A DNA stretch of 32,000 nt from Chlamydiota bacterium. Lineage in GTDB: Bacteria > Auribacterota > JACPWU01. Each line of letters begins with the position of its first letter. The first letter of the stretch is position 1. The stretch lies in contig JACPWU010000011.1 of NCBI GenBank assembly GCA_016196885.1, positions 60,001 to 92,000 on the forward strand. Reading direction: 5' to 3'. The notes under the pieces are model-generated. The model saw only the letters and a program-made list of their open reading frames with translations. It made no database searches and was not told the origin of the DNA. The position numbers were made by a program, and so were the translations under genes. Positions 2,351 through 29,483 of the stretch are shown here, one piece after another.

Positions 2351-2364
2351 GCAATCCCCAAAAA

Positions 2365-2476
2365 CAGTACTTCGTGCATCGTACTTCGTACATCGTAAAA
2401 AGCAAGCCAACGTTCGAAGTTCGAAGTACGATGTACGACGTACGGTTTTACTCGATGTACGAAGTTCGCAGCACGG
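2365..2476. repeat. Word-repeat hairpin W2 (GTACGA/TCGAAG words) between argJ and argB
   Basis: The left arm 2365-2396 is complementary to the right arm 2413-2445 with a few mismatches. Loop AAAAAGCAAGCCAACG at 2397-2412. It shares more than 40 nt with the copy at 3693-3794. Confidence 0.8.
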
Positions 2477-3692: not shown

Positions 3693-3794
3693 CGTACATC
3701 GAACATCGTACATCGAACACCGTACATCGTACTTCGAACACCGCAAAAAGCAAGCCAACGTTCGAAGTACGATGTACGACGTACGGATGTTCAG
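3693..3794. repeat. Word-repeat hairpin W3, homologous to W2, between argC and argJ
   Basis: Stem CGTACATCGTACTTCGAAC / GTTCGAAGTACGATGTACG around the same loop AAAAAGCAAGCCAACG (3745-3760). It fills nearly the whole 114-nt gap between the argC stop and the argJ RBS. Confidence 0.8.
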
Positions 3795-4874: not shown

Positions 4875-4908
4875 ATAAAAAAGCAGAAGTAGCAAAAACC
4901 ACCTCTGC
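4869..4908 (-). terminator. Intrinsic terminator downstream of rpsI
   Basis: Imperfect hairpin GCAGAGGTGG...CTACTTCTGC (4883-4908) followed on the minus strand by TTTTTTATTTTTT (4869-4882). Confidence 0.6.
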
Positions 4909-5003
4909 TTTCAAAAAAATAGAAAAATCAAAAATTAAAAATTTCCGCTACTGATAATGACGAAGATGAAAAATCCAAGTTAGGCAAGAGGGTGAAGAAC
5001 CGA

Positions 5004-6083: not shown

Positions 6084-6124
6084 ATCTCTGGTTAGATCAT
6101 TCTTAGCCGTCTCTTGCTTGAACC

Positions 6125-6308
6125 TAGCCCGCATTTCTCATCACATTTCTGCTACGAGCGCCGATTCCGCCTCGTCTCTCCGTGCAGACTCGGTCGGCCA
6201 CGCTCAACATACTGTAAAGTATGCCTCGCATGGCCTTGGTCGTCTTCCTCGCATCCAAAGCGGACTCAGGCGTTCCTCGCGACGAAATCTGATGAGAAAT
6301 GCGGGCTA
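6125..6308 (+). mobile_element. MITE family H, copy 1 (180 bp plus flanking TA/TA)
   Basis: Perfect 20-bp terminal inverted repeats, counting the flanking TA (CTAGCCCGCATTTCTCATCA / TGATGAGAAATGCGGGCTAG). TA dinucleotides flank both ends. Nearly identical second copy at 15280-15465. Confidence 0.85.
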
Positions 6309-7216: not shown

Positions 7217-7300
7217 CATTGATAATGGATAATTGAGAAATTGACAATGAAGGAATATTGATTTTAAATTATCCATTATCAATTCTCAATTATCAATTAA
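7217..7300. repeat. Word-repeat hairpin W5 (GATAAT/TTGAGAA words) between truA and metF
   Basis: GATAATGGATAA (7221-7232) pairs with TTATCCATTATC (7269-7280). GATAATTGAGAA pairs with TTCTCAATTATC (7283-7294). Confidence 0.65.
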
Positions 7301-8074: not shown

Positions 8075-8100
8075 ATTGACGATGAGCCTTCTAAAAAAAT

Positions 8101-8186
8101 AAGCGTTCAGCGTTTAGCGTACAGCGTTCAGAAAAACAAAAATCGATGTGATTGTTTTTCCTGTCCGCTAAACGCTGTACGCTATT
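8101..8186. repeat. Word-repeat hairpin W6 (AGCGTT/CAGCGT words) in the truA/amidase divergent region
   Basis: Left arm AAGCGTTCAGCGTTTAGCGTACAGCGTTCAG and right arm CCGCTAAACGCTGTACGCTA. The central region holds a sub-hairpin GAAAAACAA...TTGTTTTTC. Confidence 0.7.
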
Positions 8187-8227
8187 GCATTTTAGCACAG
8201 CATCCGCTAAGTTGTTATCGAACCTTT

Positions 8228-9226: not shown

Positions 9227-9294
9227 GCGATGGATGATGGACGATGGATGACTCACGACTCACGACTCACGACTCACGACAAACGAAATCCATC
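9227..9294 (+). repeat. GATGGAT words plus 4 x CTCACGA heptamer tandem repeat
   Basis: CGATGGAT (9228-9235) is complementary to ATCCATCG (9287-9294). CTCACGA repeats four times at about 9252-9279. Overlaps the annotated murI 5' end. Confidence 0.75.
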
Positions 9295-12256: not shown

Positions 12257-12877
12257 ATGAACATCGTCCTAGCCACAAAAAACCTCCATAAACTAAGAGA
12301 AATTCAAGAAATCTTTCAAGGGCTTCCCTTCCACTTTCTTTCCCTTGCCGAATTTAAAGACGCCCCTTCCGTGACCGAGGACGGCACATCCTTCGAAGAA
12401 AATGCGATTAAAAAAGCCCAAAGCGCCGCATCCTTTACTAGAGAAATCAGTCTGGCGGACGACTCGGGACTTGAGGTAGATGCCCTTCAAGAAGCCCCCG
12501 GGATTTATTCTGCAAGATTTGCAGGTGAAAACGCCACCGATGAAGAAAACAATCTCAAAGTTCTGGCGCTTTTAAAAAATCTACCCCCCGAAAAAAGAAA
12601 GGCCCGCTACCGCTGTGTGATGGCGCTCGCCACACCCGAAAAAAGGGTTCACATCACCGAAGGAATTTGTGAAGGACTCATCACAAAGACTCCACAAGGG
12701 AAAAACGGATTTGGCTATGACCCTATTTTCTTTTACCCCCCTTTTGGAAAAACATTTGGCCAGACGGATCCCATTCTAAAAAACAAAGTCAGCCATCGCT
12801 TCCAGGCTTTGGAAAATATAAAGCCTTTTTTAAATCTTTATTTCTCAAATCCATCTTTCTCCCAAGAACAGAGATAG
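12257..12877 (+). CDS. rdgB: dITP/XTP pyrophosphatase (RdgB/HAM1 family)
   Basis: Start trimmed to the ATG at 12257 (MNIVLATKNLHKLREI). Motifs DDSGLEVDAL, GFGYDPIF and SHR are present. The last 5 codons and the stop lie in the MITE terminus at 12861. Confidence 0.9.
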   Translation: MNIVLATKNLHKLREIQEIFQGLPFHFLSLAEFKDAPSVTEDGTSFEENAIKKAQSAASFTREISLADDSGLEVDALQEAPGIYSARFAGENATDEENNLKVLALLKNLPPEKRKARYRCVMALATPEKRVHITEGICEGLITKTPQGKNGFGYDPIFFYPPFGKTFGQTDPILKNKVSHRFQALENIKPFLNLYFSNPSFSQEQR

Positions 12878-13024
12878 GAAAATGGAATTCGACGCAACAT
12901 CTTGGCCATCTTGACCTTCAGAAAGCCTCGACAGACACCTGTCAGTGTATGCCTACGTTTTCTTCAGGTCAATCTGGCTCAAGCTGTTGCGTCTCGGTTC
13001 TCATTTCCTATCTCTGTCCTTGGG
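12861..13024 (+). mobile_element. MITE family M, copy 1 (164 bp)
   Basis: TIRs CCCAAGAACAGAGATAGGAAAATG / CATTTCCTATCTCTGTCCTTGGG, flanked by the 5-bp direct repeat TTTCT (12856-12860 and 13025-13029). An inverted homologous copy lies at 30691-30876. Confidence 0.85.
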
Positions 13025-15166: not shown

Positions 15167-15251
15167 GTCGATCTGTCCTGTGAATTTTCTAAGCGATTAT
15201 AAGAAAATGATAACTCAATGTCAAAGAACACAGCCAAACACTATAACTCCC

Positions 15252-15278: not shown

Positions 15279-15279
15279 C

Positions 15280-15465
15280 TAGCCCGCATTTCTCATCACA
15301 TTTCTGCTGCTCTTCTCCGATTCCGCCTCGTCTCTCCGTGCAGACTCGGTCGGCCACGCTCAACATACTGTAAAGTATGCCTCGCATGGCCTCGGTCGTG
15401 CAACCTCCCCTCCAAAGCGGACTCAGGCGTTCCTCGCGACGAAATCTGATGAGAAATGCGGGTTA
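15280..15465 (+). mobile_element. MITE family H, copy 2 (182 bp plus flanking TA/TA)
   Basis: Same TIRs and core as 6125-6308, with two short divergent internal patches. Flanked by TA at 15280-15281 and 15464-15465. Lies between tRNA-His and tRNA-Arg. Confidence 0.85.
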
Positions 15466-15546: not shown

Positions 15547-15620
15547 TGCGCCCGGCAGGAATTGAACCTGCGGCCTACTGGTTCGAAGCCAGTCGCTCTA
15601 TCCAACTGAGCTACGGGCGC
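15547..15620 (-). tRNA. tRNA-Arg (TCG)
   Basis: Cloverleaf: acceptor GCGCCCG/CGGGCGC, anticodon stem ACTGG/CCAGT, loop CTTCGAA, T-loop TTCAATT. No encoded CCA. Confidence 0.9.
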
Positions 15621-15630
15621 TTTAAAAACA

Positions 15631-15719
15631 GGGACTAGGGCATAGGGCTTAGGGTATAGGAAAAAAACAACTCTCTCTCTGGCTTCTCCCTAAACCCTAA
15701 GCCCTACACCCTATTCCCC
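15631..15719. repeat. Word-repeat hairpin W8 (TAGGG/CCCTA words) between two tRNA-Arg genes
   Basis: Left arm GGGACTAGGGCATAGGGCTTAGGGTATAGG is about 26/30 complementary to the right arm CCTAAACCCTAAGCCCTACACCCTATTCCCC. The loop starts AAAAAAACAA. Confidence 0.8.
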
Positions 15720-15729
15720 GCATTTAACG

Positions 15730-15801
15730 TGCCCCCAGCAGGAATTGAACCTGCACGGCCAGCTCCGGAGGCTGGTACTCTATCCGTTGAGCTATGGGGG
15801 C
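15730..15801 (-). tRNA. tRNA-Arg (CCG)
   Basis: Cloverleaf: acceptor GCCCCCA/TGGGGGC, anticodon stem CCAGC/GCTGG, loop CTCCGGA. Confidence 0.9.
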
Positions 15802-15805
15802 TTTC

Positions 15806-15898
15806 CAATTTTAGATTTTAGATTGCGGATTTTAGATTAAAAAGGTGTTCATCTAAAAATTCCGCAATCCCCAATCTAAAATCTAAAACCCGCAATTG
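15806..15898. repeat. Word-repeat hairpin W9 (TTTTAGA/GCGGAT words)
   Basis: CAATTTTAGATTTTAGATTGCGGATTTTAGATT, an AAAAAGGTGTTC loop, then a complementary arm. Near-identical copy at 15981-16055 and a half copy at 20661-20695. Confidence 0.85.
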
Positions 15899-15980: not shown

Positions 15981-16055
15981 TCAATTTTAGATTTTAGATT
16001 GCGGATTTTAGATTAAAAAGGTGTTCATCTAAAAATTCCGCAATCCCAAAATCTA
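15981..16055. repeat. Word-repeat hairpin W10 (copy of W9)
   Basis: Near-identical to 15806-15898. It begins 4 nt from the 5' end of tRNA-Arg(TCT). Confidence 0.85.
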
Positions 16056-16140
16056 AAATCAGAAGATCCTACTACATTGTCCTACCAAGTTCAGCAATTT
16101 TTTGAGGTTTTATCATGGATGAGCAAAACAAGGGGGGAAA

Positions 16141-17979: not shown

Positions 17980-19971
17980 TCACAACTTTCTTCCCTTAAC
18001 CAAGGTATCCACCACCGATGGATCGGCCAAAGTCGAAGTGTCCCCTAAATTGCCAATATCCCCTTGCGCAATTTTTCTTAAGATGCGACGCATGATTTTT
18101 CCAGACCTTGTTTTAGGAAGGCCTTCATTGAATTGTATTTGATCTGGCTTGGCAATGGGGCTGATTTCTTTTCTGACATGAGAAATGAGTTCTTTTTCAA
18201 GTTTTTCAGAAGGAGAAAACCCTTTTTTCAAGGTCACAAAACAATAAATCCCCTGCCCTTTAATCTCATGGGGAAAACCTACGACGGCCGTCTCCGCAAC
18301 CGCCTCATGAGAGACCAAAACATGCTCCACTTCAGCCGTGCTGATGCGATGACCCGACACATTGATCACATCGTCAATGCGACCCTGAAGCCAATAAAAG
18401 CCGTCCTCATCTATTTTACAGCCATCCCCTGTAAAATAATTTCCAGGAAACTGAGAAAAATAAATTTTTTGAATGCCTTCATTTTTAGAATCCCCATAAA
18501 CCCCTCTCAGCATCCCTGGCCACGGACGTGTAATAACCAAAGATCCTTTTTCATCAGCGGAGGCCTTTGTCCCATCTGCTCTAAAAACTTCAGGAACAAT
18601 CCCAAAAAAAGGTTTCGAGGTAGAACCTGGTTTCATGGGTATCGCACCTGCCAAAGGAGCAATCATAATCCCGCCCGTCTCCGTTTGCCACCACGTGTCC
18701 AGGACCGGACACCGTTCTTTGCCAATCACACGGTAATACCATAACCAGGCCGCAGGATTGATCGGCTCTCCCACACTGCCCAGAATCCTCAAAGACGAAA
18801 GATCATGTTTATGGGGCCATTCATCGCCCAGTCGCATCAACGCGCGAATCGCTGTGGGGGCCGTATAAAAAATGCTGACCTTTTCATCTGCAATGATTTT
18901 CCAGAAACGGTCGGGTTCAGGATACGTGGGAATCCCCTCAAACATCAGCACCGTCGCCCCGTTGGAAAGAGGGCCATAAATCACATACGAGTGCCCTGTG
19001 ATCCAACCAATATCAGCTGTACACCAGAATAAATCTTTATCTTTGACATCAAAAATCCATTTAAATGTTAAATGGACATAAAGGAGATACCCTGCTGTCG
19101 TGTGAAGCACACCTTTGGGTTTTCCGGTTGAACCACTGGTATAGAGAATAAAAAGAGGATCTTCTGAATCCATTTTTTCAGGAGGGCAAACAGGATGAAT
19201 ATCTGAACGCCTCATTTCTTCATGCCACCCTAGGTCTCGTCCCAATTTCATCAAGCAATCGCCCTTCCCTCGCCGGAATACAAGAACCTTTTGAACGCCG
19301 GGACATTCTTTCAGAGCCTCATCCACCTTACCTTTTAAATCAATCACCTTTCCTCCATGAAAGCCCACATCGCAAGTGACAACCACTTTTGAATCACAAT
19401 CCAAAATCCGGCCTTTTAAGGATTCCGCGCTGAAAGCCGAGAAAACAACCGAATGAATCGCACCCATTCTCGCACAAGCCAACACTGCAATCGCAAGCTC
19501 TGGAACCATCGGCATAAAAAGAGTGACACGATCGCCACGGCCCACACCATTTTTTTTCAAGACATTTGCAAAACGGCAAACTTCTTCATAAAGCTCTTGA
19601 TAAGTCAGTGTCCGTCTTTCGCCTTCCTTCTCGCCCACCCAGACAAGTGCTTTTTTATTCTTCTTCCAAGTTGAAACATGACGGTCCAAACAATTGTAGG
19701 AAGCATTGAGTTTCCCTCCGACAAAAAATTGACAATAGGGCGCTTCTCTCTGGCCAATCGTTTTGAAATCATACGCCATCACCGGGTCCCATTTCTCAAA
19801 CCATGAAAGATGCTCCTGGGCTTCTCTCGCCCAGAAATTTTCAGGATCCTTGATCGATTGCTCGTACAGGCGTTCGTATTCTTTTAAATTTTTAATGTAG
19901 GCTTTTTCACTTAAAGCTTGAGGAGGGTAAAAAACTGCATCTTCTTTCAAGGCGTGAGTCTGCTTCAACAC
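17980..19971 (-). CDS. acs: Acetyl-CoA synthetase (AMP-forming)
   Basis: 663 aa with YTSGSTGKPKG, the WWQTETGG region and a C-terminal PKTRSGKIMRR. GTG start preceded by GGAGGTG. Confidence 0.95.
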   Translation of the reverse strand: MLKQTHALKEDAVFYPPQALSEKAYIKNLKEYERLYEQSIKDPENFWAREAQEHLSWFEKWDPVMAYDFKTIGQREAPYCQFFVGGKLNASYNCLDRHVSTWKKNKKALVWVGEKEGERRTLTYQELYEEVCRFANVLKKNGVGRGDRVTLFMPMVPELAIAVLACARMGAIHSVVFSAFSAESLKGRILDCDSKVVVTCDVGFHGGKVIDLKGKVDEALKECPGVQKVLVFRRGKGDCLMKLGRDLGWHEEMRRSDIHPVCPPEKMDSEDPLFILYTSGSTGKPKGVLHTTAGYLLYVHLTFKWIFDVKDKDLFWCTADIGWITGHSYVIYGPLSNGATVLMFEGIPTYPEPDRFWKIIADEKVSIFYTAPTAIRALMRLGDEWPHKHDLSSLRILGSVGEPINPAAWLWYYRVIGKERCPVLDTWWQTETGGIMIAPLAGAIPMKPGSTSKPFFGIVPEVFRADGTKASADEKGSLVITRPWPGMLRGVYGDSKNEGIQKIYFSQFPGNYFTGDGCKIDEDGFYWLQGRIDDVINVSGHRISTAEVEHVLVSHEAVAETAVVGFPHEIKGQGIYCFVTLKKGFSPSEKLEKELISHVRKEISPIAKPDQIQFNEGLPKTRSGKIMRRILRKIAQGDIGNLGDTSTLADPSVVDTLVKGRKL

Positions 19972-20010
19972 GAATCACCTCCTAATTAAAAATTTCAAAC
20001 TCTAAATTTT

Positions 20011-20105
20011 AAATCCTAAACCCTAAACAAACTTAAAACTCAAATGCTCAAATGTTTTTGAGTTTTAGTCATTTGAGTTTGTTTAGAGTTTAGTGTTTAG
20101 GATTT
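20011..20105. repeat. Word-repeat hairpin W12 (CTAAA/CAAACT words)
   Basis: AAATCCTAAACCCTAAACAAACTTAAAACTCAAATG pairs with CATTTGAGTTTGTTTAGAGTTTAGTGTTTAGGATTT. Lies between the stop of the small ORF and the acs RBS. Confidence 0.8.
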
Positions 20106-20107
20106 CT

Positions 20108-20413
20108 TTACCAGTTCTTATCACATTTCTTACAATAAAAACGGGGATCCGCACCGCCAATCACGCAACCGCCCAATTTTACTTTACCTTCATCAGCTTC
20201 CTTCATCAATTTCTCACTGGGATAACCATACACAATGCGAACCACATTTTCTGAACTTCCACAGACAGGACAAGCTGGCATGGGGCGAACTTGGGACGGA
20301 GACGGTGATTCAACCTGAGTTTGGGCTTGAGATTTCACATCGGAAGAAGTCTCTCCCTGAACAGGAAAGACACAGAAACAAAAAGTTAAAAGAAAAAAGT
20401 AAATGAATTTCAT
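20108..20413 (-). CDS. Small secreted zinc-ribbon protein (hypothetical)
   Basis: 101 aa: signal peptide (FLLTFCFCVFPVQG), then CPVCG...CKKC. GGAGG RBS. Confidence 0.65.
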   Translation of the reverse strand: MKFIYFFLLTFCFCVFPVQGETSSDVKSQAQTQVESPSPSQVRPMPACPVCGSSENVVRIVYGYPSEKLMKEADEGKVKLGGCVIGGADPRFYCKKCDKNW

Positions 20414-20660: not shown

Positions 20661-20695
20661 TCAATTTTAGATTTTGGATTGCGGATTTTAGATTA
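20661..20695. repeat. Half copy (left arm only) of the W9/W10 element, immediately 5' of tRNA-Pro
   Basis: CAATTTTAGATTTTGGATTGCGGATTTTAGATTA with no complementary arm following. Confidence 0.75.
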
Positions 20696-20793
20696 AGAAC
20701 TTAAAACATAATGTCTGAACTACAATCAAAAATCAAGCCCCCATTTTCAGTCATGGATCGTCAATTTTTCAAAGTTTTTGCTTTTACCCACGA

Positions 20794-22802: not shown

Positions 22803-22945
22803 TAATTTCAATGATCCTTCGAGATCATCGTGTGTGATGAAAGTCCTTCCCATCATGCTTTTTTTGTAGTCGCCCGATTCATCGGGCAGCCCCATAAATG
22901 GGGCGACTACAGAATGAGCTTCACTTTCATAGCAAGAATACTCAT
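22803..22945 (+). repeat. REPIN-like element R1 (inverted REP doublet, core 22866-22910)
   Basis: GTAGTCGCCCGATTCATCGGGC faces the inverted GCCCCATAAATGGGGCGACTAC. Each half is a GTAG head plus a GC palindrome. The flanking arms are conserved with the copy at 26803-27072. Confidence 0.75.
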
Positions 22946-22947
22946 AA

Positions 22948-23088
22948 AAATAGAAATTGGGTGGCCCAACTGGGGGTCCCCCATCGAGCGTCAGCAGGTC
23001 GAGACAAAAACCTAACACTCGATCAAGAACATTAACGAGACCGATGCCGTCGATGGGGGTAAGTTGGGACAGGACCCAATTTCTATTT
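22948..23088 (+). repeat. S-element copy S3
   Basis: 15-bp outer stem AAATAGAAATTGGGT/ACCCAATTTCTATTT encloses the conserved S blocks. Ends 6 nt from the PKS stop codon. Confidence 0.85.
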
Positions 23089-23094
23089 CTTAGA

Positions 23095-24162
23095 TTACCT
23101 TTTCAGAAAAATAAAACTTTCCAAAGTTAACCCGGGCCCAAAAGCCATTGAACATCCCAAGCCACGAGTGTCAGAATTTTCCAAAAATTTCTTCAAGATA
23201 AACATCACCGTCGGAGAAGACATGTTTCCATGATTTCTCAAAACATCATAAGAAGGCCCCATTTTTTCTTTGTTCAATTCTAATTCGGCTTGAATGGCCT
23301 CTAGAATGGTTCTTCCCCCGGGATGAATCGCCCAAAACTGAAAATCATTCAGCAAATGGTTGTGCAAAATCTTCTCTTTTTCTTTTCTCAAACCCAAAGC
23401 TAAAGACTGAGGAAGCTCTGGATGCAAATTCATAAAAAAACCATCATTTCCAATCGTCCATCCCATTTTGTCTAAGCTTTCAGGAATGACCGTCGTATAA
23501 AAATCTTCAATCTTTATTCCAACAGGCTCAGCACTGATAAGACTTGCCGCACATCCATCCGCAAAAAGCAGAAATGAAATCAATTGATCAAAGGGAACAC
23601 CCTCTTTTCTCCAATGCAAGGTACAAAGCTCCAGATTGACCATCAAAACCTTTGCATGAGGATTTCCCTGAATCATACTTCTTGCCAATTTCAGCCCCGG
23701 AATGGCCGCATAACAGCCCATGTAACCGATAAAAGTTCTTTCAATATTGGGGTTTAAATTTAACTTTTGAACAATATCAATATCTAGACCAGGTGCATAA
23801 AAACCAGTGCATGAAGTGATGATTAAATGCGTGATTTTTTCATTCAGACCATCTGATAAAATAGGTTTCAACGCTTGATCCGCCAAAGGGAAAGCCTCTG
23901 TTTTGTACCGGGCCATTCTCTCTTGTGTGGAAGGAAAATGATTTGAATGATAAAAAGCCTGAGGAATTTCTCCATTCTCAGAGAAAAAATGTTGAAGAAC
24001 CGTGTGGCGTTTTTCAATCCCTAATCTTTTGGCAATGGCCAAAAACTTCTGCTTGTCTTCTTGAGAACAAACAAACCGGGATAAAAAATCAATAGATCTT
24101 GCATGCCCTTCATAGGGAGGAACCGCTGTCGAGATACGATTGATGTAAATGGGAGAGATCAT
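23095..24162 (-). CDS. Type III polyketide synthase (chalcone/stilbene synthase family)
   Basis: Start trimmed to the ATG at 24160-24162 (MISPIYINRISTAVPPYE). The Cys-His-Asn triad context is visible (ITSCTGFYAPG; FWAIHPGG; GNMSSPTV). Confidence 0.9.
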   Translation of the reverse strand: MISPIYINRISTAVPPYEGHARSIDFLSRFVCSQEDKQKFLAIAKRLGIEKRHTVLQHFFSENGEIPQAFYHSNHFPSTQERMARYKTEAFPLADQALKPILSDGLNEKITHLIITSCTGFYAPGLDIDIVQKLNLNPNIERTFIGYMGCYAAIPGLKLARSMIQGNPHAKVLMVNLELCTLHWRKEGVPFDQLISFLLFADGCAASLISAEPVGIKIEDFYTTVIPESLDKMGWTIGNDGFFMNLHPELPQSLALGLRKEKEKILHNHLLNDFQFWAIHPGGRTILEAIQAELELNKEKMGPSYDVLRNHGNMSSPTVMFILKKFLENSDTRGLGCSMAFGPGLTLESFIFLKR

Positions 24163-24168
24163 AAAGAC

Positions 24169-24298
24169 AAATCCGAAATCCAAAATTCGAAGCACGAAAC
24201 AAATTCAAAATTCAAATATCTAAAAAAGCAAAACGTTTTTAATTTTAAATTTAGGTTTTCGAATTTGTTTCGGATTTCGATTTTCAAACTTCGAATTT
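24169..24298. repeat. Word-repeat hairpin W13 (CGAAAT/TTCGAA words)
   Basis: AAATCCGAAATCCAAAATTCGAAGCACGAAACAAATTCAAAA pairs with TTTTCGAATTTGTTTCGGATTTCGATTTTC.... The loop contains AAAAAAGCAAAACGTTTTT. It fills the GH94-PKS gap. Confidence 0.8.
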
Positions 24299-26768: not shown

Positions 26769-26802
26769 TTCGTCTAAAAAAGTCGTTCTTATAAAAATAT
26801 CA

Positions 26803-27072
26803 ATTTTAATAATCTTTCGAGATCATCGTGTGTGATGAAAGTTCTCTCCATCGTGTTTTTTGTAGTCGCCCGATTCATCGGGCAATCCATGCAAGGGGCA
26901 CACGGCAGCCCCATACTAAGGAGGCCATATTCCCACCCTACATGGGTCATCTCTTTAACGATGCAGTTTTGAGCCTCCTTGTCCTTAGTACTGTCAGAAT
27001 TGAGTGGATAAAACTTAATGAACTGACTTGTAAATGGGGCGACTACAAAATGAGCCTCACTTGCATAACAAA
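26803..27072 (+). repeat. REPIN-like element R2, with ~115-nt insertion in the second REP loop
   Basis: Same flanks and REP heads as R1 (core 26862-27046). Extra 23 nt between the REPs and about 115 nt (26916-27030) inside the GCCCCAT..ATGGGGC loop. Confidence 0.75.
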
Positions 27073-27074
27073 AA

Positions 27075-29483
27075 TTAAATAATCTCCAAATAAAATTCCT
27101 TTGCCGAATTTCGATAAGAAATCAAATAGCCCATTTCAGTTGCTGCAAATTCTTGTTCTTTCCCGTTTAAAAGCACTTTCTGAGGCGTCTGTGGCATGCT
27201 GAATAAAAATTCCCCCTTAAGACCGGGCAAACCTTGAAGGGTCAGCGCTACTTTTCCTTCCTCAACTTGCGTTCCTAAAAGCTCAGAAGTCGCATAAAGA
27301 ATTTTCAATCTTGAATTTGGAACACTCCAATCGATTGGAAAAATCTGACCCGATGTTCCTGGAATAGCCAAACGTTTTTTTGACGGAATACGAACTTTCT
27401 TTCCTTGAATCAAAATTTCAATCACCATTTCTTTTTCTACCGGATGAAAATTTAAAACAAATAAAAACGAACCCGCAGGGCCTTTGCGGAGATGACAAAC
27501 CACATCAGGCTCATCGCAAGTGACTTGAGGAAGAACACCCCCTTGATCCAGAAAGGCCTTAAAAACATCCAGATGCTCCGCAATTTGATAATTTGGAAGC
27601 GTTCCCAAAATGGTGGCTTTACCTTTCCCAATTTTTTTCTCAATCCCACAAACTTTCCCAGCAATTTTTGCTACAGGGCTCGCATTGTTTCCGTTAAAAA
27701 TCGTCATGAGCGGGAATGAATTGACCCCTTCATGGTCAAAAAACTGGACCTTTGTTTCTGTGGGACAAAAAAGAGAATCTCCTGTGACACCTAAGCCCTG
27801 GCGTAAAATCTCACAAGGGCGTCCTTCCAAATCTACTTTTGGCAAGGTGGGATAAAAAATGGCCTTCCCTCCCTGATTCAAGAACTCTAGAACTTTCTCT
27901 TGGGTTTTAGCGTCCATCATTTCCAAAGACATAATCCAAATCTGACGATATTTTAGAAGCTGCTCTATAGACTCCTTTTGAAGATCTGGAATCTCTGGAT
28001 TGTAGCTCATCATGTAAAGCGTTTTGATCAAGCCATCAAAATAAAAAGCATCTCTCAACCATTTATAGTCATAGGTCAAGCCTACTTTTTCTGATCTAAA
28101 ATATTTATCTTTCAAGAAAAGCGGATAGAAAAATTCTGTCTCGTAATAGGGTTTATAAAATGGAACAGCGACTGCCGTTTCTTTCTTTGCCGGAACTAAA
28201 TTTGACTCATTGGCTCGAATCCAGCGGTTTAAATCTTCTATGGTTTCATAAAGAGGCATTTCTTTTGCCTTCACATCAAGAGGCGTGTCCCAATAAAACA
28301 TGGGACCGTAGACGCCTTCCCCAGGAGGATTTTTCCCCTGAGAAAACATATAATAATTCCAACCTTGCGTTCCATACGCGAGTGCTGATTTATAAAAAAG
28401 TCCAAGTTGATTCGGATACGTTCTCACACAATGCTCACGCGACCCCGCCTGAAACTCTGCAGAATAAATCGGCAAATCAGCGCCCTGAATCGAACGCGTC
28501 ATTTCTGTAATTACACCCGCGTCATGAAAATTTCTAAAATCTACATTTTCAGGAATGTGATCCAGCCCCAGCAAAAGATCTGGCCTTTGCTCGGCCACAT
28601 CGGCATAAAGCGTTACGCAGACGGGAAATTCATTTGCCCGGCCATACACCCAACCGGGGACGTTTTCATAAAAGGGAGTTTCTACTCCGCGCTTGCGAAG
28701 ATCATCCATTAAATGGCGTAAATAAACGGAATAATACCAGCGATGAAATTCATGCCAATCCCGATAACGGGCCATGTCCTCTGGCTTTTCTGTATTGCCC
28801 GAGGGAGGAATCACTTGCTCAAAGGACGCATACTCTTTGCGATACAATTGATTTAAGGCAGCAAGGGTCTGATATTTCTCTTTCAAAAATTGATAATAAT
28901 ATTTGAGCGTTGCAGGATTATAATCCCCGCAGCCGGCCAGCCAATGTTGAAGTCCGACTTCATTGCAAATCTGCGTCATCACCACAGGCCCATTTTTACT
29001 CACTTGGCGATCACGAATCACAGGAATAATCTGGTCAAACCACTTGGCCGCATATTCCAAAAAGAGAGGATGCATGAGAGAACACACAAAAGGAATATAC
29101 GGCTGGCCTTGAGGATTCTGAACTTGCACTTCGGGATGGCGATTTAAAAACCAACGCGGAATTCCTTGATCTTGGTACTCGGCCAAAATATAGGGGCCCG
29201 GTTTTACCACTACATCCAGGCCCGACTTCCCGCAAAGATCGATGAACCCAATAATATCCTTTTCAGGACCAGTCTTACCTTCTAAATCAAAACTTCCCTC
29301 TTTCGTCTCATGCCAAGACCATGGGATGTACGTCGTAACTGCATTCAAGTGGGCCTTCTTCATTTTCTCCAAATGCTTCGGCCAATCCTTCTTTTGGACT
29401 CGAAAATAATGCATCTCCCCGGAAAGCATAAAAAAAGGGGCCCCTTCCTTCTTAAAACCTTCTTGTGTCAATTCAAAGCGCAT
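27075..29483 (-). CDS. GH35-family beta-galactosidase
   Basis: 802 aa. N-terminal GEMHYFRV....W...L.KMK.AHLNAV.TYIPW..HE is the GH35 catalytic-domain signature. AGGAG RBS. Confidence 0.85.
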   Translation of the reverse strand: MRFELTQEGFKKEGAPFFMLSGEMHYFRVQKKDWPKHLEKMKKAHLNAVTTYIPWSWHETKEGSFDLEGKTGPEKDIIGFIDLCGKSGLDVVVKPGPYILAEYQDQGIPRWFLNRHPEVQVQNPQGQPYIPFVCSLMHPLFLEYAAKWFDQIIPVIRDRQVSKNGPVVMTQICNEVGLQHWLAGCGDYNPATLKYYYQFLKEKYQTLAALNQLYRKEYASFEQVIPPSGNTEKPEDMARYRDWHEFHRWYYSVYLRHLMDDLRKRGVETPFYENVPGWVYGRANEFPVCVTLYADVAEQRPDLLLGLDHIPENVDFRNFHDAGVITEMTRSIQGADLPIYSAEFQAGSREHCVRTYPNQLGLFYKSALAYGTQGWNYYMFSQGKNPPGEGVYGPMFYWDTPLDVKAKEMPLYETIEDLNRWIRANESNLVPAKKETAVAVPFYKPYYETEFFYPLFLKDKYFRSEKVGLTYDYKWLRDAFYFDGLIKTLYMMSYNPEIPDLQKESIEQLLKYRQIWIMSLEMMDAKTQEKVLEFLNQGGKAIFYPTLPKVDLEGRPCEILRQGLGVTGDSLFCPTETKVQFFDHEGVNSFPLMTIFNGNNASPVAKIAGKVCGIEKKIGKGKATILGTLPNYQIAEHLDVFKAFLDQGGVLPQVTCDEPDVVCHLRKGPAGSFLFVLNFHPVEKEMVIEILIQGKKVRIPSKKRLAIPGTSGQIFPIDWSVPNSRLKILYATSELLGTQVEEGKVALTLQGLPGLKGEFLFSMPQTPQKVLLNGKEQEFAATEMGYLISYRNSAKEFYLEII

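Follow-up and report, generated by a model that had tools for sequence, protein, structure and literature searches.

The window analysed here, a stretch of 32,000 nucleotides (nt) from a metagenome-assembled genome (MAG) of an uncultured Chlamydiota bacterium from groundwater (contig JACPWU010000011.1, positions 60,001 to 92,000), holds arginine genes (argC, argJ, argB), truA and metF, a cluster of tRNA-Arg genes and acs, and, in the spacers of these genes, a series of long hairpins whose arms consist of degenerate tandem heptanucleotides. The hairpin flagged in an earlier note on this DNA (20004–20105) lies between a 101-aa open reading frame (ORF) and acs: it is 102 nt long, with 49-nt arms around a 4-nt loop and 40 Watson-Crick pairs in 47 aligned columns; it folds better than any of its shuffles, with z-scores of −6.2 (RNA) and −7.2 (DNA); and it stands 2 nt past the stop codon of the ORF (20108–20110), leaving 32 nt to the GTG that starts acs (19971). 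NCBI contig JACOUD010000035.1 and Logan contig L050 both carry this hairpin unchanged.

Long imperfect palindromes were listed with an einverted-like dynamic programme of our own (match +2, mismatch −3, gap −4, loop 3–45), since blastn self-comparison overlooks palindromes that span their own centre; a sliding-window scan of minimum free energy (MFE) was too noisy for this purpose. The window contains 12 long hairpins with a score of at least 30 and 11 with a score of at least 36, compared to means of 0.075 and 0, respectively, and a top score of 35 in 40 shuffles preserving the local dinucleotide content of the window. The hairpins are real and far beyond chance: word-armed hairpins with differing words do recur here, as the earlier note had claimed, and the shuffled DNA of the same composition that it proposed as a check does not give similar ones at similar frequency. 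Nine of the 12, the hairpin before acs among them, have arms of tandem words, and three palindromes (12861–13024, 22857–22919 and 22939–23097) are not word-built. RNAfold and the dynamic programme together placed the sites of the earlier note where it had put them or a few bases off; its weak AT-rich case at 1358–1405 (MFE −7.8) scored below the threshold and is not retained. Junction and family counts are based on 50,116 nt of the source contig, assembled from three overlapping stretches, in which 16 hairpins score at least 28; 11 of these have heptamer arms, and the remaining five are a family of palindromes resembling repetitive extragenic palindromic (REP) sequences and long non-periodic inverted repeats.

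The arms of the 11 hairpins share one period. Identity at a lag of 7 nt is 0.51–0.83 vs. 0.26 in the background, with no other lag prominent; 31 of 44 rows of Tandem Repeats Finder output have a period of 7, 14 or 21; and in 1.58 Mb of loci searched for tandem periods of 5–11 there are 38 arrays of period 7 (three of them runs of masked N) vs. three to nine for each other period. The words of “5–8 nt” described in the earlier note are therefore heptamers in every word-built hairpin. The window also carries a perfect direct array of GACTCAC in 4.4 copies, which has no inverted partner; this array looks young, is presumed to represent the precursor state, and shows that arrays are still forming. 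Positions, words and lag-7 identities are collected in Table 1.

Table 1. Heptamer hairpins and arrays in the window, with two hairpins of the same contig just outside it
Feature	Position	Strand	Words and location	Lag-7 identity
Flagged hairpin	20004..20105	.	CTAAACN / AAATCCT (+ strand), degenerate heptamers	0.57
W2 hairpin	2361..2449	.	GTACNTC / TTCGAAC heptamers; argJ–argB spacer	0.70
W3 hairpin	3710..3790	.	W2 family; argC–argJ spacer	0.72
truA–metF hairpin	7223..7299	.	TAATTGA / GAATTGA heptamers	0.72
Amidase/truA divergent-spacer hairpin	8091..8195	.	AGCGTNN / GCTNNAC heptamers	0.56
tRNA-Arg(ccg)/tRNA-Arg(tcg) spacer hairpin	15631..15719	.	TAGGGNN / CCCTANN heptamers	0.51
T2 hairpin	15809..15888	.	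GATTNNN / AATCNNN; between tRNA-Arg(tct) and tRNA-Arg(ccg)	0.81
T1 hairpin	15984..16059	.	T2 family; directly upstream of tRNA-Arg(tct)	0.59
T3 half copy	20662..20696	-	35-nt 3'-arm block TTAATCTAAAATCCGCAATCCAAAATCTAAAATTG alone; ends 5 nt upstream of tRNA-Pro	
GH94–PKS hairpin	24169..24298	.	CGAAATN / AATCCGA heptamers; more degenerate	0.61
Direct array without inverted partner	9250..9280	+	Perfect (GACTCAC) x4.4; 100% matches	
argF–argG hairpin	L057:12151-12222, just outside window		Heptamer arms	
argH–lysA hairpin	L057:15003-15084, just outside window		Heptamer arms	

Most of the hairpins are single-copy in the 50 kb, and no sequence is shared between loci outside two families. In family W, W2 and W3 lie 1.3 kb apart and share about 95 nt including the loop (TAAAAAGCAAGCCAACGTT in W2); in family T, T1 and T2 are the same over about 70 nt, and the half copy T3 stands 4.6 kb away, lacks a good 5' arm and lies in a region that folds at only −13.7 kcal/mol. 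The earlier note had described unrelated word sets that are not copies of one transposing sequence: different words do recur, but families W and T have two to three copies. The difference between copies of a family is exactly one 7-nt unit, T2 having an additional GATTGGG relative to T1, and W2 an additional TTCGAAC relative to W3; as W2 and W3 pair in registers one unit apart, compensatory changes between them are uninformative.

Comparison with related contigs suggests how such hairpins arise. The window is 99.95% identical to JACOUD010000035.1 (MAG GCA_016178005.1), whose proteins are labelled Chlamydiae/Chlamydiota bacterium; the two assemblies differ by two indels and about a dozen substitutions, and all hairpins are identical between them. 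Hypervariability, or phase variation, of the hairpins was rejected on this ground. The closest TruA protein, 69% identical, belongs to a sister MAG (GCA_016178055.1) from the same study, followed by those of Verrucomicrobia; with these relatives and the Chlamydiota labels, a cyanobacterial origin, which the heptamers had first suggested, was rejected. Three relatives (contig L051, from the sister species, and contigs L054 and L055) keep the order truA-metF-rplM-rpsI-argCJBDFGH, and their spacers are short and without hairpins, so that the hairpins of the window are probably a recent gain.

At two orthologous sites the relatives likely preserve intermediate states. Upstream of truA, L055 and L054 have TTTTTTC-TGTAC(C/G)C; in L051, TTTTTC precedes about four GCTNNAC units in direct array; and the window has the T-run and array of the L051 type plus an inverted copy upstream, which together make up the amidase/truA hairpin. 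On this comparison the truA-proximal arm and the T-run of that hairpin appear to be ancestral, and the distal arm an added inverted copy. The other site is the argF 3' end. Here the tail of the protein (...DSQNQKSKIKNQN*) is encoded, in L051 (18250–18311), by direct (AAAATCA)n repeats, and in the lineage of the window (L057:12090–12179) a (CAGAATC)n array encodes the tail (...NRIQNPESRIQESE*) and is directly followed, after a 4-nt loop, by a 33/34-perfect inverted copy of itself; the ArgF tails of more distant relatives are unrelated. At this site the coding arm should be the older one.

The arms themselves point in the same direction. Paired in register, they form Watson-Crick pairs at 0.88 of positions; slid by 7 or 14 nt they do so at 0.64, and at other shifts at 0.24, with a within-arm unit identity of 0.66. 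The same mirror test on 45 metagenomic hairpins, described below and taken from among the matches listed, gives 0.85, 0.67 and 0.23. Such unit-by-unit mirroring indicates that a hairpin is the inverted copy of an already diverged array, rather than a pair of arrays that grew independently.

We therefore consider it reasonably probable that the elements are inverted arrays of degenerate heptanucleotide tandem repeats, made by local slippage followed by inverted duplication. In the proposed path, a 7-mer lying in a spacer or at the extreme 3' end of a gene would expand by replication slippage, in 7-nt steps, to a short direct array, the units of which would then diverge; fold-back synthesis through a template switch within the strand, of the kind seen in quasi-palindrome mutagenesis, would add an adjacent inverted copy, the product being an imperfect palindrome of 75–130 nt that takes up most of the spacer; and a few hairpins, those of families W and T, would later have been copied to other junctions. 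Of the two origins offered in the earlier note, a local generating mechanism by inverted duplication plus slippage is thus the one favoured, by the hairpin-free relatives, the sister sites with an array alone, the one-unit steps and the mirrored arms.

The two families invite a different explanation, in which the hairpins form several families of miniature non-autonomous mobile elements, and an enzyme that reads the hairpin shape rather than the sequence, and perhaps also a run of A or T in the loop, would move them. The cores of W (two copies) and T (two copies and a half copy, all beside tRNA genes) are about 90–100% identical, loops included; hairpins are absent at the orthologous junctions of relatives; and a loop motif is enriched in the hairpin centres. 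A run of A5+ or T5+ occupies the centre of 9 of the 11 hairpins, as the earlier note had seen, vs. 2.3 expected from other intergenic DNA of the genome (P about 3e-5, from a count that includes two same-family pairs). The motif A5+(G)CA is about 9–20-fold enriched in the centres, with 8 of its 59 genomic sites within 345 nt of centre sequence, and, read on the sense strand, the run usually has the form TG(C)T5–7 and adjoins the 3' arm. Among the matches listed, only 6 of 45 hairpins on contigs of other organisms have such a run, so that the loop motif seems to be specific to this lineage. However, no terminal inverted repeats or target-site duplications are visible at the boundaries of W and T; most hairpins are single-copy within the 50 kb, where no gene for a transposase, a REP-associated tyrosine transposase (RAYT) or an HUH protein was found; and at two sites one arm either is orthologous to a pre-existing array of the sister or is itself coding sequence, which indicates growth in place and not insertion. 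We regard mobility as unlikely.

Family T raises a further possibility, namely that the arrays bind protein as DNA and that the family T arm is the promoter of the adjacent tRNA gene, its repeated TAAAAT serving as −10 boxes. A 35-nt block, TTAATCTAAAATCCGCAATCYAAAATCTAAAATTG, occurs at 15806–15840, 15982–16016 and 20662–20696 (- strand) with 34 of 35 positions invariant; it ends 4–5 nt upstream of tRNA-Arg(ccg), tRNA-Arg(tct) and tRNA-Pro, is partnerless at tRNA-Pro, and places a −10-like TAAAAT 6–7 nt from the 5' end of the tRNA. A promoter scan gives TTTAGA-17-TAAAAT in T1 and T2, and AATCNNN arrays abut tRNA genes in several metagenome contigs among the matches listed. The −35 match is poor (3/6), and a match in a consensus scan is no evidence of function; the TAGGGNN and GTACNTC word families have no promoter-like content; and tRNA-His has a perfect TTGACA-17-TATAAT match upstream instead (15196–15224, - strand). 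Such promoters would account for one family at most, and we hold this explanation to be improbable.

The heptamer hairpins occupy 11 of 53 junctions, or 11 of the 38 spacers of at least 50 nt (21–29%), and do not, as had been stated in the earlier note, sit at most gene junctions. All 11 lie in spacers or overlap gene ends: five spacers between co-directional genes of a conserved cluster carry one (truA–metF, argC–argJ, argJ–argB, argF–argG and argH–lysA), as do the GH94–PKS and ORF101–acs spacers, three spacers of the tRNA-Arg cluster and the divergent spacer between amidase and truA. They start 2–30 nt past the upstream stop codon or overlap it, and end 6–32 nt before the next start codon; W3, for example, lies 6 nt past the argC stop and 27 nt ahead of the argJ start, and the GH94–PKS hairpin (42 of 56 columns paired) is separated by 4 nt from the GH94 stop upstream and by 6 nt from the annotated type III polyketide synthase (PKS) start downstream. 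Given these distances, the hairpins form most of their spacers: the truA–metF hairpin leaves 25 nt on either side, and the one between tRNA-Arg(ccg) and tRNA-Arg(tcg) fills the whole spacer, the scan widening it to 15610–15739, into the tRNA ends. As they stand inside operons and a tRNA cluster, they are presumably transcribed.

Stable hairpins directly past stop codons recall intrinsic, possibly bidirectional, transcription terminators or attenuators, and in the metagenomic set, among the matches listed, convergent junctions are mildly over-represented (9/103 vs. 18/395 co-directional). Against this, the 3' arms are mostly not followed by a T-tract on either strand, a Shine-Dalgarno sequence and a start codon following within 6–32 nt instead; a terminator scan of the window picks up none of the hairpins, yet finds a textbook intrinsic terminator after rpsI (4879–4912, - strand), which is conserved in three relatives; the hairpins lie inside conserved operons or between tRNA genes, with no room for new promoters; and one of them separates divergent genes. 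The rpsI terminator and the tRNA-His promoter show that the organism uses canonical signals elsewhere. As a U-tract is mostly lacking, the hairpins do not qualify as intrinsic terminators, and we consider a role in termination or attenuation highly improbable.

More weight should be given to the possibility that the hairpins are functional RNA elements, i.e. selected intercistronic stem-loops that segment or stabilise polycistronic mRNAs and tRNA precursors, or that tune translation of the upstream gene in the manner of REP sequences. As RNA they would form duplexes of 23–50 bp (z about −6), which could be substrates of RNase III and barriers to 3' exonucleases, and those 2–6 nt past a stop codon could disturb terminating ribosomes, as REP elements do. 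Their position speaks for such a role, as they lie within operons and between tRNA genes, 2–6 nt from or overlapping stop codons and 6–32 nt before start codons; the spacers of relatives hold other structured elements, such as a nested hairpin in the argJ–argB spacer of L051; and in a metagenomic family described below the stem base next to a conserved loop shows paired variation (GGTAT/ATACC vs. GGAAT/ATTCC) in 4 of 5 copies. For the hairpins formed by cyanobacterial sequences of the short tandemly repeated repetitive (STRR) kind the function is unknown, but roles in stability, translational coupling and termination have been proposed (PMC2670836).

No mark of selection for RNA structure is seen in the sequences. 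Among 78 mismatches, pooled from the co-directional hairpins of the genome and 18 metagenome hairpins among the matches listed, the sense strand has 43 of the G·U type and 35 of the A·C type, with 41.5 of the former expected from composition, and sense and antisense strands do not differ in folding energy. An apparent G·U bias in the window alone (19 vs. 8), which is attributable to the G-rich sense strand, was rejected, as it disappeared after correction for composition and addition of the 18 hairpins. Moreover, the orthologous junctions of relatives lack the hairpins; divergent junctions carry some as well (8091–8195, and 6 of 33 classified metagenomic cases among the matches listed); and the distribution of junction types roughly tracks the amount of spacer DNA. 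Selection for structure, the second origin offered in the earlier note, thus gains no support, and the RNA explanation seems to us possible but doubtful. Because no sequence signature of selection for RNA structure is found, we regard the hairpins mostly as tolerated by-products of a mutational process, any effect on RNA processing being secondary.

Several observations weigh against an origin by slippage and inverted duplication. The enrichment of A/T-runs in the loops and the strict conservation of the 35-nt arm beside three tRNA genes, once without a partner, are not predicted by a purely random process; AATCNNN, GATAATT and ACAGAWG recur across unrelated organisms, which hints at a sequence preference or a function; and families W and T show that copying between loci takes place as well. 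The template-switch step is read from end states, no intermediate of it having been seen, and the evidence for the direction of change at the two orthologous sites comes from few taxa; the sister could instead have lost an arm, although the conserved coding arm polarises the argF event. In addition, with 78 mismatches the mismatch test is of low power, choosing the best register raises the in-register figure of the mirror test, and hairpins that are unique in the 50 kb of genome read may have copies elsewhere.

Similar hairpins occur in other genomes. Metagenome contigs scanned with an 18-mer of family T yielded at least 120 contigs with 35–67% G+C. Among the matches listed, 80 of 116 distinct contexts extend the array with in-register AATC units (<1% expected); 22 are heptamer-armed hairpins, and the same contigs hold 23 more with other words (45 in total), including GCGGAAT, GTGACAA, GACAGAT, GATGAGT, GGTAAAT, GATAATT and GCGCATA; and the junction types of these hairpins roughly follow spacer length. 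On an unrelated metagenome contig (L166), the word of the truA–metF hairpin likewise builds a hairpin. The named control genomes (778 kb) contain just two heptamer hairpins, one each in an Acidobacteriota and a Roizmanbacteria MAG; the density is 2.2 per 10 kb here vs. 0.026 per 10 kb in the controls, about 85 times higher. A set of 48 loci found with the acs protein, which contains no close relative, served as negative controls only.

Two recurrent arrangements in the metagenome contigs are recorded here as observations of their own. Five contigs from unrelated metagenomes (L065, L066, L068, L073 and L115) carry an element with the conserved centre GG(A/T)ATCGCTKCGCTCTATC...AGAAT(A/T)CCTTA; GATTNNN arrays border it on the one side and AATCNNN arrays on the other, with variable triplets that do not mirror each other between the arms, and the element has no Rfam match. 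A family of this kind, with a conserved central domain and variable heptamer arms, also counts in favour of the mobile-element explanation. Seven contigs (L070, L078, L092, L136, L140, L153 and L171) have short AATCNNN arrays directly upstream of a conserved gene start (MPSFDIVSE...), whose product may be YajQ-like; the array fills the intercistronic spacer there in several different organisms.

Rfam 15 finds only tRNAs at the gathering threshold in the sequence analysed, the hairpins giving sub-threshold look-alike matches to miRNA-precursor models, and no match in the metagenome loci with heptamer hairpins among the matches listed. Other known systems were considered and rejected: attC sites, as no hairpin has both RYYYAAC and GTTRRRY boxes and the flanks are a conserved housekeeping operon; integrons, retrons and CRISPR-like systems, as there is no integrase, reverse transcriptase or cas gene among the called genes of the 50 kb; and REP sequences and REPINs (REP doublets forming hairpins), as no sequence is common between loci and no RAYT-like gene is among those called genes.

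The earlier note knew of no described class that matches. However, heptanucleotide tandem repeats that form intergenic hairpins have been described (PMC2670836, PMC4692102, PMC4679880). Hairpins of 7-bp STRRs are “not unusual in filamentous cyanobacteria”, as between hupS and hupL (PMC2670836), and inverted heptamer arrays have been reported in Xanthomonas and Nostoc (PMC4692102). Heptamers are the over-represented class of long simple sequence repeats (SSRs) in bacteria, according to Mrazek et al. 2007 as cited in PMC4679880 and PMC4692102; heptameric SSRs are intergenic, vary in length and sequence between close relatives and sometimes form inverted pairs, and polymerase slippage has been proposed as their origin (PMC4692102, PMC4679880). 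Published words include GGGAATC in Xanthomonas, GGGGAYT in Nostoc and TAACTGA in Beggiatoaceae (PMC4679880, PMC4692102), and satellites derived from heptamers are probably of local origin (PMC6749651). A literature search found no paper on heptamer hairpins in Chlamydiae.

The elements of the window have the features by which heptanucleotide repeats are recognised: 7-nt head-to-tail units, dispersed intergenic copies and 7-nt steps between copies of a family. With the cyanobacterial STRRs they share tandem heptamers, dispersed intergenic copies, some hairpins between co-transcribed genes and the lack of a known function, but they differ in that the host is a Chlamydiota MAG, that the words are largely locus-specific, and that the palindromic form dominates (11 hairpins in 50 kb vs. 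one perfect direct array, the only one noted, direct arrays not having been counted systematically); the strict STRR units CCCCAGT (STRR1), TTGGTCA (STRR2) and CAACAGT (STRR3) do not occur in tandem here. The STRRs of heterocystous cyanobacteria, among them one inside RNase P RNA, were reportedly described by Mazel in 1990 and Vioque in 1997. With heptameric long SSRs the elements share the over-representation of period 7, an intergenic location, variation between close relatives, some inverted pairs and a proposed origin by slippage; moreover, the AATC core of family T, CGAAATC and CAGAATC is also that of AATCCCC (the Nostoc word in reverse complement) and AATCGGG (the Xanthomonas word, rotated). 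They differ in that the published repeats are mainly direct arrays of one genome-wide word, whereas here many words occur and nearly all are mirrored, and most words here lack G-quadruplex potential. We conclude that this is the same phenomenon as the STRRs and heptameric long SSRs, and that what is new is the host, the very high density and the mostly palindromic form.

Other systems resemble the hairpins in part. Like REP sequences, bacterial interspersed mosaic elements and REPINs of proteobacteria, they are imperfect palindromes in intercistronic spacers near stop codons, are tolerated inside operons, and would be expected to have the same effects on RNA, as exonuclease barriers and by interference with terminating ribosomes; in contrast, REPs are 20–40 bp long, conserved in sequence, present in high copy number and tied to RAYT, whereas the stems here are longer, built of heptamers, mostly single-copy and without a RAYT seen. 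Quasi-palindrome mutagenesis, reportedly worked out by Ripley in 1982 and in the Lovett laboratory, produces or perfects inverted repeats by template switching, either intrastrand or across the fork, and could account for the near-perfect inverted copy and 4-nt loop after the coding array of argF; to our knowledge, it has been described for point mutations and short patches in laboratory assays, and not as a genome-wide generator of 30–50-nt arms. The small dispersed repeats (SDRs) of Nostoc punctiforme are said by Elhai et al. in 2008 (cited in PMC3116915) to be very small repeats associated with heptamer repeats and hairpin contexts, and reportedly form sequence families of 21–27 nt whose mobility was deduced by comparison of orthologous loci; compared with such defined families, there are only two low-copy families here. 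With regard to miniature inverted-repeat transposable elements, the 50 kb hold two families of two to three copies without visible target-site duplication or defined ends.

A broader and more speculative proposal is that the hairpins come from a specific DNA transaction, with a 7-nt step and a preference for certain words, notably AATC+NNN, that is shared across bacterial phyla, and that in this lineage the conversion of arrays to palindromes is unusually active and starts at TG(C)T5–7, which ends up in the loop; the lineage could have gained an enzyme or lost a safeguard (for instance a 3' exonuclease or SbcCD). Besides this genome and the sister species, the AATC core occurs in the repeats published from Nostoc and Xanthomonas and, among the matches listed, in more than 80 metagenome contexts (35–67% G+C). 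We consider this proposal rather unlikely.

The window has further repeats that are distinct from the heptamer hairpins. The palindrome at 12861–13024 is a non-heptameric, imperfect one of 164 nt (score 68), with a related copy outside the window; beside it, 158 nt (12699–12856), which encode the conserved C-terminal part of a Ham1/ITPase ORF, are missing from JACOUD010000035.1, a difference due either to a deletion variant or to the assembly. Between tRNA-Arg and tRNA-His (15279–15465) and between metF and rplM (6120–6308) lies a dispersed repeat about 187 nt long, without Rfam match, the copies being 92–95% identical; 48 nt of the window copy (15290–15337) are absent from the NCBI assembly. 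The REP-like palindrome family, GTAGTCGCCCCATTTATGGGG-CTG-..., has at least three copies in the 50 kb (22857–22919, ~26797–26884 and L058:4046–4098), and the palindrome at 22939–23097, 159 nt long, imperfect and without heptamer periodicity, lies downstream of the type III PKS gene. In the GH35/42 gene, 27694–27747 shows seven clustered substitutions relative to the NCBI assembly, the rest of the 32 kb being almost identical. The acs gene (17980–19971) has no close chlamydial relative in the one-genome-per-species GTDB, its best matches being 70–73% in unclassified, Nitrospirota and Actinomycetota MAGs, which suggests horizontal acquisition.

Heptanucleotide repeats have been known in bacteria since 1990 and are the most over-represented class of long SSRs there; their origin and function are unsettled. 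Our analysis adds a host far from the cyanobacteria, with about 85 times the control density; an orthologous series from a 7-mer to a direct array and on to an array with its inverted copy, which offers a testable path of formation; and negative evidence against a terminator function and against selection on RNA. It also hints that some words (AATCNNN) and the loop motif are not arbitrary. If the mutational model is true, the hairpins mark template-switching activity, and they would also create spacers, ArgF tails and possibly regulatory RNA structure.

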